NCBI GenBank assembly: GCA_036930585.1
Contig: GCA_036930585.1_3066.1
Reading direction: 5' to 3' (one strand)
DNA: 64,000 bases
From: a phage
Shown here: positions 2,477 through 47,147 of the stretch, one piece after another
Numbering within the stretch: the first letter of the stretch is position 1
Layout of the letters: each line of letters starts with the position of its first letter
Translations under genes and position numbers: made by a program
The notes under the pieces: generated by a model
Told to the model about the DNA's origin: nothing
What the model saw: the letters and a program-made list of their open reading frames with translations, nothing else
Databases searched by the model: none

Positions 2477-3492
2477 TGTGTTGCCTCTACATATAACTGA
2501 TTTGCATATTGAATAAGTGCTTCACGGTCAGAATCAGTGATGTCTGGAATTGCATTAATGTATTCTTCCATCAATGTCTGAAGCGATTGAACTTCAACTT
2601 CTTCACTGTCATCTGACTCGACAGAGTTATCAATCTTTGACACAACTCGTAATGAATGCACAACTTTTTCTAGTTCAGATTCGAACTTCGTCAGATTTTT
2701 GTCTACTTCAGTTACTATAACACGTACTGATAGATTTGTAAAATCTTTATAGTCAATTTTTCCTTTAAATGGATAATGAATTCTACGATGCCAGGTAGTA
2801 TTATTTGGAATAAATTCCATTCGTTCTGTTTCTGTATCAAACATCCAGAACCCACGAGGGTCATTCTCGTCACCTGCAGTTAGTGTCCATGGTGTCCCAA
2901 TATATCTGACGTTAGCAGCCTCAGAGATAGTATGGAAGTGACCAGACCACACTTCCTTATAAGTCTTAAGGAAATCAGGTTCAAGACCGTGAGATTTCAT
3001 TCCTTTATAAAAATAAAATCCGTTCAGTTCCCAGTGACCAACACAAAAAGAAGCAGATGAAGTTTTGATATGCTCAAGAATTTCACCAGTATTTTCTTCA
3101 CACATCCAAGGAATTAAATCAATTAAACATCCGTCAAAATCTACTGTAGTAGGCTTATCATATACTTTAACATTAGGATATTTAGCCAAAAGCTCAGTAG
3201 AGGCATTTGGATGCATTACATTTTTATAGTGGAGATCGTGATTTCCTACAATAGTATGTAATGTGATTCCAGCACCATCAAGCATTTGAACTATTTCACG
3301 GGCAAACTCCATAGTTTTATGCGTGATTGCTTTTCGCACATCAAAAATATCACCATATTGAATCCAGGTAGTAATTCCATTTTTCTTAGAATATTCTATC
3401 GCTTGCTTAATTCCGTCAAGTTGAATACCGCGAATCCATTCATCATCAGCTTTAACGCCTAAATGCCAATCACCTAAATTTAAAATTTTCAT
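2473..3492 (-). CDS. 47: recombination endonuclease subunit gp47 (Mre11/SbcD-like phosphoesterase)
   Basis: 339 aa; GDWHLG and GNHD metallophosphatase motifs; matches T4 gp47 by recall. Confidence 0.95.
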   Translation of the reverse strand: MKILNLGDWHLGVKADDEWIRGIQLDGIKQAIEYSKKNGITTWIQYGDIFDVRKAITHKTMEFAREIVQMLDGAGITLHTIVGNHDLHYKNVMHPNASTELLAKYPNVKVYDKPTTVDFDGCLIDLIPWMCEENTGEILEHIKTSSASFCVGHWELNGFYFYKGMKSHGLEPDFLKTYKEVWSGHFHTISEAANVRYIGTPWTLTAGDENDPRGFWMFDTETERMEFIPNNTTWHRRIHYPFKGKIDYKDFTNLSVRVIVTEVDKNLTKFESELEKVVHSLRVVSKIDNSVESDDSEEVEVQSLQTLMEEYINAIPDITDSDREALIQYANQLYVEATQ

Positions 3493-43137: not shown

Positions 43138-43728
43138 ATGCTCTTTACATTTTTTGATCCGATTGAATATGCGGCCAAAACGGTGAATAAAAACGCGCCG
43201 ACTATTCCTATGACAGATATTTTTAGAAACTATAAAGACTATTTTAAACGCGCTCTTGCGGGATACCGCTTACGTACTTATTATATCAAAGGTTCACCAC
43301 GCCCGGAAGAATTAGCAAATACTATATATGGAAATCCACAGTTGTATTGGGTTTTATTGATGTGTAATGATAATTATGACCCGTATTATGGATGGATTAC
43401 TTCACAAGAAGCAGCTTATCAAGCATCTATACAAAAATACAAAAATGTAGGTGGAGACCAAATAGTATATCATGTGAATGAGAACGGTGAAAAATTTTAT
43501 AATTTAATATCATACGATGATAATCCATATGTTTGGTATGATAAAGGTGATAAAGCTAGAAAATATCCTCAATATGAAGGAGCACTTGCTGCTGTTAATA
43601 CGTATGAAGATGCTGTTCTTGAAAATGAAAAACTTCGTCAAATAAAAATAATAGCAAAATCAGACATTAATTCATTTATGAACGACCTTATACGTATAAT
43701 GGAGAAATCTTATGGAAATGATAAGTAA
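43138..43728 (+). CDS. 53: baseplate wedge protein gp53
   Basis: 196 aa; synteny and recall. Confidence 0.9.
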   Translation: MLFTFFDPIEYAAKTVNKNAPTIPMTDIFRNYKDYFKRALAGYRLRTYYIKGSPRPEELANTIYGNPQLYWVLLMCNDNYDPYYGWITSQEAAYQASIQKYKNVGGDQIVYHVNENGEKFYNLISYDDNPYVWYDKGDKARKYPQYEGALAAVNTYEDAVLENEKLRQIKIIAKSDINSFMNDLIRIMEKSYGNDK

Positions 43729-45442
43729 TAACCTTAATTGGTTTGTTGGTGTTGTTGAAGATAGAATGGACCCATTAAAATTAGGTCGTGTTCGTGTTCG
43801 TGTGGTTGGTCTGCATCCACCTCAAAGAGCACAAGGCGATGTAATGGGTATTCCAACTGAAAAATTACCATGGATGTCAGTTATTCAACCTATAACTTCT
43901 GCAGCAATGTCTGGAATTGGAGGTTCTGTTACTGGACCGGTAGAAGGAACTAGAGTTTATGGTCATTTTTTAGACAAATGGAAAACTAACGGAATTGTCC
44001 TTGGCACGTATGGTGGAATAGTTCGCGAAAAACCTAATAGACTTGAAGGATTTTCTGATCCGACTGGACAGTATCCTAGACGTCTAGGAAATGATACTAA
44101 CGTATTAAACCAAGGCGGAGAAGTAGGATATGATTCGTCTTCTAATATTATCCAAGATAGCAATCTAGACACTGCGATAAATCCTGATGATAGACCACTA
44201 TCAGAGATTCCAACTGATGATAATCCAAATATGTCAATGGCTGAAATGCTTCGCCGTGATGAAGGATTAAGACTAAAAGTTTATTGGGATACCGAAGGAT
44301 ATCCGACAATTGGTATTGGTCATCTTATCATGAAGCAGCCAGTTCGTGATATGGCTCAAATTAATAAAGTTTTATCAAAACAAGTTGGTCGTGAAATTAC
44401 TGGAAACCCAGGTTCTATTACAATGGAAGAGGCGACAGCTTTATTTGAGCGTGATTTGGCTGATATGCAACGTGACATTAAATCACATTCTAAAGTTGGC
44501 CCAGTCTGGCAAGCTGTCAACCGTTCTCGTCAAATGGCATTAGAAAATATGGCATTTCAGATGGGTGTTGGTGGTGTAGCTAAATTTAACACAATGTTAA
44601 CTGCTATGTTAGCCGGAGATTGGGAAAAGGCATATAAAGCTGGTCGTGATTCATTGTGGTATCAACAAACAAAAGGCCGTGCATCCCGTGTTACCATGAT
44701 TATTCTTACGGGGAATTTGGAATCATACGGTGTTGAAGTAAAAACCCCAGCTAGGTCTCTATCAGCAATGACTGCTACTGTAGCTAAATCTTCTGACCCG
44801 GCTGATCCTCCTATTCCAAATGACTCTAGAATTTTATTCAAAGAACCAGTTTCTTCATATAAAGGCGAATATCCTTATGTGCACACAATGGAAACTGAAA
44901 GTGGACATATTCAGGAATTTGATGATACTCCTGGGCAAGAACGATACAGATTAGTTCATCCAACTGGAACTTATGAAGAAGTATCACCGTCAGGAAGAAG
45001 AACAAGAAAAACTGTCGATAATTTGTATGATATAACCAACGCTGATGGTAATTTTTTGGTAGCCGGTGATAAAAAGACTAACGTCGGTGGATCAGAAATT
45101 TATTACAACATGGATAATCGTCTTCACCAAATAGATGGAAGCAATACAATATTTGTACGTGGCGATGAAACTAAGACAGTTGAAGGCAATGGAACTATCC
45201 TAGTTAAAGGTAATGTTACTATTGTAGTTGAAGGTAATGCTGACATTACAGTTAAAGGAGATGCTACCACTTTAGTTGAAGGAAATCAAACTAACACAGT
45301 AAATGGAAATCTTTCTTGGAAAGTTGCTGGGACAGTTGATTGGGACGTTGGTGGTGATTGGACAGAAAAAATGGCATCTATGAGTTCTATTTCATCTGGT
45401 CAATACACAATTGATGGTAGCCGTGTGGATATTGGGTTATAA
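43712..45442 (+). CDS. 5: baseplate hub / tail lysozyme gp5
   Basis: 576 aa; internal T4-lysozyme-like domain (MLRRDEGLRLKVYWDTEGYPTIGIGHL); C-terminal VxGxxxxxV beta-helix repeats. Confidence 0.95.
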   Translation: MEMISNNLNWFVGVVEDRMDPLKLGRVRVRVVGLHPPQRAQGDVMGIPTEKLPWMSVIQPITSAAMSGIGGSVTGPVEGTRVYGHFLDKWKTNGIVLGTYGGIVREKPNRLEGFSDPTGQYPRRLGNDTNVLNQGGEVGYDSSSNIIQDSNLDTAINPDDRPLSEIPTDDNPNMSMAEMLRRDEGLRLKVYWDTEGYPTIGIGHLIMKQPVRDMAQINKVLSKQVGREITGNPGSITMEEATALFERDLADMQRDIKSHSKVGPVWQAVNRSRQMALENMAFQMGVGGVAKFNTMLTAMLAGDWEKAYKAGRDSLWYQQTKGRASRVTMIILTGNLESYGVEVKTPARSLSAMTATVAKSSDPADPPIPNDSRILFKEPVSSYKGEYPYVHTMETESGHIQEFDDTPGQERYRLVHPTGTYEEVSPSGRRTRKTVDNLYDITNADGNFLVAGDKKTNVGGSEIYYNMDNRLHQIDGSNTIFVRGDETKTVEGNGTILVKGNVTIVVEGNADITVKGDATTLVEGNQTNTVNGNLSWKVAGTVDWDVGGDWTEKMASMSSISSGQYTIDGSRVDIGL

Positions 45443-45460
45443 ATAATTCAGAGGTAAATT

Positions 45461-46324
45461 ATGAAGAAATCCAAAACCATACAATTCCGTTACATTTATA
45501 AATCAACAGTAACCAACCCAAAGGGGTTGGTTCGAATATATATAGGAAAGCATGAATCCAGATATTTTAATCTAGAGGATGATAATTACGTAGGAAGCGG
45601 GGATTATATACAAAAGATTAAAAACAAACCAGGCTATGCTATAGATTTCGAAATTATCGAATTCGTTTCAACACTCGATGTTTTAAATGAAAGAGAAAAA
45701 TTTTGGATATCTGAATATAGAAAAACGGGCCAGTGTGTTAATATAAAAGACGGTGGAGATGGATTTTCTTCAAACGATTTAAAACGAATGTGGTCTAATC
45801 CTGAGTATCGAGAAACTCAACTTAAAGCTTTGGCAAAAGGAAAATCTACAAAAGAATTTTCAGAAAAAATTTCAAAAATTAATAAACTTAGATGTTCGGA
45901 ATCGGAATATCGAAAGAAAATGAGTAATGCGATGAAAACTGCTTTTGAAAATGATCCCACATTAAAAATTCGTATTTCTAATACTGTCAAATCTTTATGG
46001 AAATCCGATGAATATAGAAACAAATTAATTAATCATCCAGGAAAAATAGAAGGAACGAAAAAATCCTGGAATAATCCTTTAATAAGAAAATCAAGATTAG
46101 ATACTAGAAATAAAAAACTAAGATCAGTTGAACCTTGGATTAGTATTGAAAAAGTCAAAAAACTTTGGGAGGATTTGGGAAAACCTCATCCGCAGAAATA
46201 TAAATGGTTTAGAGAAAAAGCAATTGAACATAATCTACCGGATGTAAGTTATAACGCAATTTTAAAAGCATTGAAAAAATGTGATTATAAATTTACACCA
46301 TTGGAGAATTCAATAATTGGCTAA
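45461..46324 (+). CDS. GIY-YIG homing endonuclease (Seg-like) with C-terminal NUMOD-type repeats
   Basis: RYIYK...RIYIGKH...NEREKFWISEY (compare I-TevI ERENFWIKEL); repeated NPEYRETQL / SESEYRKKM / KSDEYRNKL. Confidence 0.85.
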   Translation: MKKSKTIQFRYIYKSTVTNPKGLVRIYIGKHESRYFNLEDDNYVGSGDYIQKIKNKPGYAIDFEIIEFVSTLDVLNEREKFWISEYRKTGQCVNIKDGGDGFSSNDLKRMWSNPEYRETQLKALAKGKSTKEFSEKISKINKLRCSESEYRKKMSNAMKTAFENDPTLKIRISNTVKSLWKSDEYRNKLINHPGKIEGTKKSWNNPLIRKSRLDTRNKKLRSVEPWISIEKVKKLWEDLGKPHPQKYKWFREKAIEHNLPDVSYNAILKALKKCDYKFTPLENSIIG

Positions 46325-46853
46325 TATACTTCCTTTAAATACCGACTTAGGAGAATCCATGGAAGGTTCTTCTATCGACGTCACCTTTACCGCTCAATTA
46401 GAAACAGGTGAAACGTTAGTATCTATAAATATAACTAGTTACGAAGAAACTCCTGGGGTTTTAGTAGAAGAAAATCGCTTATACGGAACATATGAATCTG
46501 TGTTTGGATTTGGAAATGACGCGTTGAAATATCGTTTAGGCGATGAATTTAAAACTGCTGCTTCATGGGAAGAACTTCCTACTGATTCTGATACTCAGTT
46601 GTATTTATGGAAAGCTCCTCAAAACCTCCAGAAGACATTCACTTACGAAGTAACATTAATATATGACTACCAAGAACAAAGTGAATCTGGAGGTTCTGGC
46701 AGTAATTCTAGGTCATCTTCTGATACTACTGAACCGACAGATCCTCCTGCTCCAGTAAGAAAAACTCTCGTTAAAAATTATACTAAAACTATAGTTGGAA
46801 ATTGGAGTCGTTGGGCTAATAAATTAAGAAGCTATGTGTATGAGAGGTCATAG
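46317..46853 (+). CDS. hypothetical protein (gene 5.1 region), Ser/Gly-rich linker
   Basis: 178-aa ORF. Confidence 0.55.
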
Positions 46854-47147
46854 ATGTCAGGATTAAGTTATGATAAATGTGTTACTGCTGGTCATGAAGC
46901 ATGGCCTCCAACAGTTGTGAATGCTACACAAAGTAAAGTATTCACTGGAGGAATTGCTGTTCTCGTAGCAGGTGATCCAATTACAGAACATACAGAAATT
47001 AAAAAGCCATATGAAACACATGGCGGAGTGACACAACCTAGAACTTCTAAGGTATATGTCACTGGAAAGAAAGCTGTTCAAATGGCTGATCCAATATCAT
47101 GCGGTGATACTGTGGCTCAGGCATCATCTAAAGTATTCATTAAATAG
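46854..47147 (+). CDS. 5.4: PAAR-repeat spike tip protein gp5.4
   Basis: 97 aa; matches T4 gp5.4 by recall. Confidence 0.85.

Follow-up and report, generated by a model that had tools for sequence, protein, structure and literature searches.

The phage DNA analysed here (the window, meaning the whole stretch of 64,000 nucleotides) is from a T4-type phage (Tequatrovirus), with ACG-C40 as its best long match at ~97%. At the 3' end of its T4-type gene 5 it carries an 898-bp cassette that, judged from sequence, very probably holds an intact, free-standing homing endonuclease gene of the Seg type with a GIY-YIG nuclease domain (Table 1). A Seg-like GIY-YIG gene had been proposed in an initial annotation made from the letters of the DNA, and this identity is supported by profile homology, invariant catalytic residues and a patchy distribution among phages. 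The gene, called seg below, adds a new and uncharacterised example to a familiar class of elements, and its relative in T6 is already annotated as 'seg-like'. It is also free-standing, as had been suggested: it is a stand-alone ORF at the edge of phage genes, outside any intron or intein, and a search of 45200..46600 against Rfam gave no family, group I introns included, and only sub-threshold snoRNA noise.

The ORF listing contains a single ORF here, with an ATG start. It is no chance reading frame: 33 phage records contain full-length orthologues, at least 44 blocks of metagenome assemblies encode the identical protein, and dN/dS stays at 0.06-0.12 whichever domain or allele pair is compared. 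The GC content of seg is 0.29-0.32, compared with 0.36-0.41 in the flanks, and its 3' end, ATT GGC TAA (46316..46324), consists of the original final two codons and stop of gene 5. The initial annotation had placed the gene between baseplate genes 5 and 5.4. Gene 5 does lie upstream, but the downstream neighbour is gene 5.1, as identified by its PHROG match and the T6 annotation, followed by 5.4 and then gene 6. The TTG start that the ORF finder assigned to gene 5.1, at 46317, is probably not the genuine one.

Table 1. Features of the seg locus, in window coordinates.
Feature	Position	Strand	Description
Gene 5 (baseplate hub, tail lysozyme, spike)	43712..45442	+	576 aa; Pfam Gp5_OB 9.8e-66, Phage_lysozyme, Gp5_C
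Island of identity to F2	45370..46355	+	99.6%, 4 mismatches in 986 bp
Inserted cassette	45418..46315	+	898 bp; replaces the 13 bp ATCGAGGATTGAC of the empty site
TTATAAAT direct repeat, left copy	45437..45444	+	scars L005 and L006 joined exactly here
TATAAATA, T4 late-promoter consensus	45438..45445	+	overlaps the new gene 5 stop; 15 nt 5' of the seg ATG
GAGG Shine-Dalgarno sequence	45451..45454	+	6 nt 5' of the seg ATG; conserved in the alleles
seg-like ORF	45461..46324	+	287 aa; PHROG 314 'homing endonuclease' 6.7e-20
GIY-YIG nuclease domain	45485..45769	+	residues 9-103: Y11-I12-Y13 ('GIY' strand), Y27-I28-G29 ('YIG' strand), Y43xGSG47, E79, N94; pLDDT 85-97
Hairpin, perfect 9-bp stem, 4-nt loop	45511..45532	+	AACCAACCC AAAG GGGTTGGTT; seg codons 17-24
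Helical repeat region	45767..46135	+	residues 103-225: three units of 34-35 aa around (W)xxxEYRxK and a partial fourth
C-terminal region	46136..46321	+	residues 226-287; predicted three- to four-helix, winged-helix-like module
TTATAAAT direct repeat, right copy	46285..46292	+	deletion between the copies removes seg
Donor-type (HX01, CEV1, F2) patch, seg-5.1 spacer	46334..46346	+	8 SNPs; T4 type again from 46350
Gene 5.1	46359..46853	+	164 aa; PHROG 1168; annotated gp5.1 in T6 and RB7
Gene 5.4 (PAAR spike tip)	46854..47147	+	protein identical to T4 gp5.4

All of the motifs first noticed in the translation are present (RYIYK at residue 10, RIYIGKH at 25, NEREKFWISEY at 76, NPEYRETQLKAL at 113, SESEYRKKMSNAM at 146 and KSDEYRNKLIN at 181). 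The Pfam search proposed in the initial annotation did not recognise the protein. For the whole protein, Pfam and NCBIfam returned nothing relevant (Pfam E≤0.1), and the N-terminal 105 residues alone scored 12.2 bits against PF01541, below the cut-off of 22.6, with no match to PF19835. Deeper profiles were positive. A profile search yielded 3692 relatives, and 71,950 representatives when run on the exhaustive library, and a profile of the 120 best relatives matched I-TevI (1LN0) over the entire domain with E=1.8e-7, which bears out the suggested likeness to the I-TevI catalytic core. An HMM built from nine PF01541-positive relatives only gave the window protein 57 bits over residues 10-103. 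These deeper tests settle the question of a GIY-YIG nuclease. Among the 120 best relatives, 102 contain NUMOD3, 81 SegE_GIY-YIG and 54 PF01541; the seg clade itself is small, with three 90%-identity clusters among the proteins searched. A sequence search of the PDB had the I-TevI catalytic domain as its sole match (E=0.2), a phmmer search of the PDB with the C-terminal 185 residues returned noise only, and Foldseek found nothing with the full-length model.

Five residues, Y13, Y27, G29, E79 and N94, are invariant among the 120 best relatives and align to Y6, Y17, G19, E75 and N90 of I-TevI. Both strand features that give the family its name are present, with Y13 aligned to the IY of I-TevI and the 'YIG' strand to its Y17 and G19, and the predicted structure has the three-stranded sheet and helices of the GIY-YIG nuclease fold. 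The metal-binding catalytic glutamate is E79 in NEREKFW, which pairs with E75 in IERENFW of I-TevI and is kept in the T6 allele (NSIERYW). The conserved asparagine, N94 in VNIKDGG, pairs with N90 in YNIAD of I-TevI. R27 of I-TevI falls in an I-TevI-specific insertion of the profile alignment, a segment missing from the alignment of the Seg-like family; no arginine is invariant across the family, and K30, H31 and R34 are candidate equivalents of R27 in the seg clade.

Behind the nuclease domain, copies of EYR at residues 115, 149 and 184 are spaced 34-35 residues apart. The repeat is not significant alone in a tripeptide shuffle test, as 1173 of 5000 shuffles contain some tripeptide at least three times; it is supported instead by homologues with the identical motif and by predicted helix pairs. 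The motif LWxDPEYRxKMS is found in other Seg-like proteins, interleaved with NUMOD3. The initial annotation had compared three or four such repeats to NUMOD modules. The repeats themselves are there, but Pfam NUMOD3 (PF07460) matches neither the whole protein nor residues 103-222 alone at E≤10, while T4 SegC scores 1.7e-6. A home-made NUMOD3 HMM gave the window protein 5.6 bits, a score equalled by 2 of 1000 shuffles, and the sequence resemblance of the seg repeats to NUMOD3 is at most remote. The C-terminal module is presumed to be the DNA-binding end.

How does the protein compare with characterised relatives? I-TevI, the td intron endonuclease (catalytic domain 1LN0/1MK0), is intron-encoded and has a zinc finger, NUMOD3 and a helix-turn-helix, none of which was detected in the window protein. 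T4 SegC is closer in kind: it is a free-standing GIY-YIG Seg endonuclease from the same gene cluster, with a YxGSG-type domain and the invariant Tyr, Tyr, Glu and Asn, and its mobility is documented (PMC2988022). However, it occupies another site (between 5.1 and 5.4), has 198 residues, is only 25% identical to the window protein, and matches Pfam NUMOD3, SegE_GIY-YIG and I-TevI_DNA-bd, none of which the window protein matches. Some phages have both seg and segC.

The limits of the cassette were set by the junctions with the empty sites of T4 and RB7, which read …ATTGATGG ATCGAGGATTGAC ATTGGCTAA TATACTTCC…. The insertion brings a recoded gp5 tail, TATAAATA, the Shine-Dalgarno sequence and almost the whole seg ORF. 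The final eight codons and stop of gene 5 (45418..45442) are thus cassette-derived: GGT AGC CGT GTG GAT ATT GGG TTA TAA (GSRVDIGL*), where the empty site has GGA TCG AGG ATT GAC ATT GGC TAA (GSRIDIG*). The same layout, with diverged sequence, is found in T6 and in a third allele (L011). The C-terminus of gp5 changes from …SRIDIG to …SRVDIGL, an Ile-to-Val replacement with an extra Leu, at the spike tip where gp5.4 (PAAR) sits; since gp5.4 is identical to the T4 protein, there is no compensating change on that side. At one codon of the gp5 tail the window has ATT (Ile), and F2, CEV1 and the metagenomic copies have GTC (Val).

The TATAAATA ahead of seg is conserved in all three alleles and is annotated 'predicted late promoter' in Yersinia phage fPS-2. 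Across the window this motif is not enriched above chance (13 found vs. 11.3 expected), so the copy is a candidate late promoter only. It lies so near the Shine-Dalgarno sequence that any transcript from it would have a very short leader. Gene 5.1 contains a second TATAAATA ~65 nt from its start, at 46424..46431 (+), which the aligned T4 and T6 sequences share; it could serve 5.4 and gene 6 as an internal late promoter, or it may be a chance match. A scan for sigma-70 promoters and terminators gave nothing above expectation, save that the hairpin within the seg coding sequence was flagged on the minus strand. Within gene 5, small antisense ORFs at 43734..43871 (-) and 44838..45005 (-) occupy the positions annotated repEB and repEA in T4 and T6. 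These are the replication initiation proteins of oriE, and the seg cassette accordingly lies ~0.5 kb from the oriE region.

Comparison of the gene 5-6 interval, which the initial annotation had recommended, revealed a presence/absence polymorphism among close relatives around a conserved empty site. A full-length copy of the 90-nt empty junction is present in 482 phage records; of the 516 records that match it, 460 do so with at least 99% identity. The T6-type allele, ~82.6% identical to that of the window, is present in ~30 Tequatrovirus records, including ACG-C40, PYPS2T and fPS-2, with annotation as Seg-like or homing endonuclease in some of them. T6 ncORF142 ('seg-like hypothetical protein', AXN58183.1) has the same locus, junctions and architecture, with 86% amino-acid identity. 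The allele of the window, hereafter F2-type, was found at 99.3-100% identity in F2 (QIG57562.1) and vB_EcoM-ZQ3, where it is a 'hypothetical protein', and in draft contigs of CEV1, with the same insertion point, recoded gp5 tail and TATAAATA; counted across gene and junctions, the nucleotide identity is 99.5-99.8%. The gene 5 region of these three phages, however, is HX01-like (Mosigvirus-type) and only 68-70% identical to that of the window. The seg protein of F2 differs from that of the window at residue 285 (Val vs. Ile). No isolate record combines a T4-type backbone with the window allele; in metagenomes, all eight of the loci examined that encode the window-identical protein are T4-type.

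The third allele, L011, comes from a Logan contig of 1462 bp (SRR10822052) and has 74% amino-acid identity with the same junction layout; the start region of its gene 5.1 is unlike both the T4 and the HX01 types. Searching IMG/VR with this allele returned distant relatives only (30-36%), and no longer contig was found there or in JGI metagenomes. The DNA pattern of the left junction occurred in one IMG/VR contig and in none of the JGI metagenomes. In the literature we found no published characterisation of the window or T6 allele, and a review of T4 mobile elements does not include a seg gene at gene 5/5.1. Other endonuclease genes are found nearby: segC between 5.1 and 5.4 in T4 (L003 3738..4334), a 'SegA-like' gene between 5.4 and 6 in VR26 (L009 4332..5009) and a homing endonuclease between genes 2 and 4 in HX01 (L010 17..667), insertions that mark the gene 2-4-53-5-6 cluster as a hot spot for endonuclease genes. 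CJY920, SP21535, Manna, LH2 and T4_ev151 are ~565 bp longer between 5.1 and 5.4, which fits segC in both length and place, and three of the five have a 'homing endonuclease' annotated there, as judged from matches only.

The signature of movement between phages is an island of near-identity to F2 centred on the cassette (Table 1). In the 500 bp on either side of the island, identity of the window to F2 falls to 70.0% and 67.8%. With T6 the pattern is reversed, with flanks of 96.2% and 97.4% and an island of 82.8%. The flanks of F2 match HX01, a Mosigvirus with an empty site. Together, the window and the eight metagenomic T4-type loci display four flank haplotypes made of donor-type patches, which are confined to positions -17 to -34 on the left and +17 to +30 on the right. 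Donor-type SNPs are found on the left only in L013, L014, L016, L017 and L019, on the right only in the window and L012, and on both sides in L015 and L018. The left tracts are partial in L013, L016 and L019, which miss the -34 marker present in L014, L015, L017 and L018. Reciprocally, the left side of F2 has ~45 nt of T4-type sequence, and F2 and CEV1 have the T4-type right junction, without the extra 11 bp of HX01. The identity island, the haplotypes and the reciprocal patches are natural footprints of transfer with co-conversion of the flanks. Tracts that are short, variable and reciprocal are the legacy of break-initiated gene conversion (mechanism in PMC2988022). Some products lack donor markers beyond -17 and others beyond +17, which most likely places the break no more than a few tens of bp from the insertion, although the tracts could have been trimmed by recombination at a later stage, and the haplotypes could derive in part from ordinary T-even recombination after a single acquisition.

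The alleles themselves are mosaic. Between 45418 and ~45927, a segment that takes in the nuclease domain and first repeats, the identity of the window allele to that of T6 is ~72%, and synonymous sites in the nuclease domain are saturated (pS=0.81); from 45928 to 46324 the identity is ~95%. The switch between the window/F2 and T6 alleles lies at ~45925, near residue 155, with ~27% mismatches before it and ~5% after. So sharp a change implies that the presumed target-binding half has not shared the history of the nuclease half, and the sequences point to recombination of seg lineages with each other.

Loss of the gene has also left traces. Scars were found in the records of LF73P1, LF73P3, ESh36 and 215Ecol030PP, and were read in sequence in two of the four, which represent two haplotypes. 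In LF73P1 (L005 ~2510..2580) and 215Ecol030PP (L006 ~2480..2550), the recoded gp5 tail meets the final 37 bp of seg at TTATAAAT, a precise removal of the endonuclease gene by deletion between the two 8-bp direct repeats; in the LF73P1 scar the left tail is F2-type and the right end T6-type. We also considered an ancestral gene lost in most phages, and rejected it: true losses leave the recoded tail and 37 bp, and the 482 empty sites are unrecoded. The empty state is ancestral, since the unrecoded gp5 tail is shared by genuine empty sites and by VR26 and HX01, which were sampled from other genera.

Within the seg coding sequence lies a hairpin of -14 kcal/mol (z=-4.0), the only one in the window, which encodes the clade-specific TNPKGLV. 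Both the T6 allele (-17.5 kcal/mol) and the third allele (-14.5 kcal/mol) retain it. Where a stem pair joins two wobble positions, T6 has compensatory changes in three cases out of three, despite the saturation of synonymous sites. The shuffle control is weak, with three distinct sequences only, and 35 of 500 shuffles were equally good. Hairpins that sequester the ribosome-binding site are known for I-TevI, segB and mobE. A hairpin of the I-TevI/segB type was tried for seg and rejected, the folds of 45385..45480 and of the T6 equivalent being no better than shuffles (z=+0.3 and -0.8). It is tempting, though doubtful on these sequences, to combine two ideas: that the hairpin is a cis-acting RNA or DNA control element within seg, and that Seg enzymes of the same site exchange catalytic modules. 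If the former were true, expression or processing would be controlled from within the coding sequence, unlike with the ribosome-binding-site hairpins. If the latter were true, the alleles, near-identical in their C-terminal halves and ~28% diverged in their nuclease halves, would be natural evidence for it.

We propose that seg would be transcribed late, on the message of the gene 53-5-6 operon or from the TATAAATA ahead of it. If a phage that lacks the cassette takes part in a mixed infection, the Seg enzyme would bind the highly conserved gene 5/5.1 junction (…CAATACACAATTGATGGATCGAGGATTGACATTGGCTAATATACTTCC…) of that phage and cut within a few tens of bp of it; the predicted cut is at most ~50 bp from GATGGATCGAGGATTGACATTGGCTAA and in empty sites only. 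Repair of the break from the seg+ genome would copy in the cassette together with short stretches of flank. DNA of a carrier is proposed to escape cutting because 898 bp interrupt its site and because recoding has altered 8-10 positions of the gp5 tail. The copy in the window is best explained as a recent acquisition from a donor of the F2/CEV1/HX01 type. Deletion between the two TTATAAAT repeats removes the gene and leaves a recoded scar, presumably resistant to cutting. Since characterised Seg enzymes often cut hundreds of bp away from their own gene (PMC2988022), the nearness of the cut to the insertion is something that we infer.

This account has to be weighed against the view that the Seg-family protein encoded by seg has ceased to home, being an inactive passenger or domesticated, and that the gene spreads by ordinary recombination. 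Suggested roles would be a DNA-binding regulator, a factor in marker exclusion or competition, or a driver of local amplification as reported for SegB. The want of an assignable Arg27 equivalent in the alignment and the sub-threshold scores of the curated GIY-YIG models would suit such a protein. A passenger that does no harm could also survive in an essential late operon, and a 2026 paper describes a host-beneficial role for SegB (PMC13096335). Yet Y13, Y27, E79 and N94 are invariant across 120 relatives, and the nuclease domain has dN/dS of 0.06-0.12 despite saturated synonymous sites. The identity island is centred exactly on the cassette, with very short and variable flank patches, a pattern that break-initiated gene conversion predicts and random crossovers do not. 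We therefore consider a protein that has ceased to home improbable. That the gene is instead a conserved baseplate structural or assembly component and not mobile, the alternative that the initial annotation itself had raised, is suggested by a position within the late baseplate operon and by expression that is likely to be late. Its absence from ~482 of ~520 closely related genomes, in which the gene 5-5.1 junction is intact and nearly invariant, effectively rules this out, and the clear nuclease homology and the GC content below that of the flanks leave it a vanishingly small probability.

An active homing endonuclease could also cut far from its gene, hundreds of bp into 5, 5.1, 5.4 or elsewhere, as SegG and SegF do, and the recoded gp5 tail would then be a leftover from an earlier host lineage, not a determinant of immunity. 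Distant cutting is common for free-standing T4 endonucleases (PMC2988022), and the recoded tail (CGT..GAT..GGG) resembles the native gp5 end of HX01 and may be inherited, not selected. However, every marker between cut and cassette would have to be co-converted if the cut were distant, and the absence of such markers counts against it: the window and L012 have no donor-type marker left of -17, and L013, L014, L016, L017 and L019 have none right of +17. Beyond the short patches, the flanks of the window are T4 type (96.2% and 97.4% identical to T6). This makes a distant cut very improbable, and a homing endonuclease that cuts near its insertion point is the reading that we favour.

The general interest of the finding is modest. 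It adds an uncharacterised Seg endonuclease to the biology of the T-even phages, together with a precise prediction of where it homes, namely the final ~30 bp of gene 5 and the gene 5-5.1 spacer, a nearly invariant sequence (at least 99% identity in 460 records), and with the prediction that carriers would be immune through a split and recoded site. For annotation it is a caution, as the curated GIY-YIG and NUMOD models miss the clade entirely and most records say 'hypothetical protein'. At this one locus, most of the life cycle of a homing endonuclease appears in natural sequences, an unusually legible record: invasion across flanks that are ~30% different, short and variable co-conversion tracts, module exchange between alleles, and loss by deletion between 8-bp repeats that leaves a probably resistant scar.
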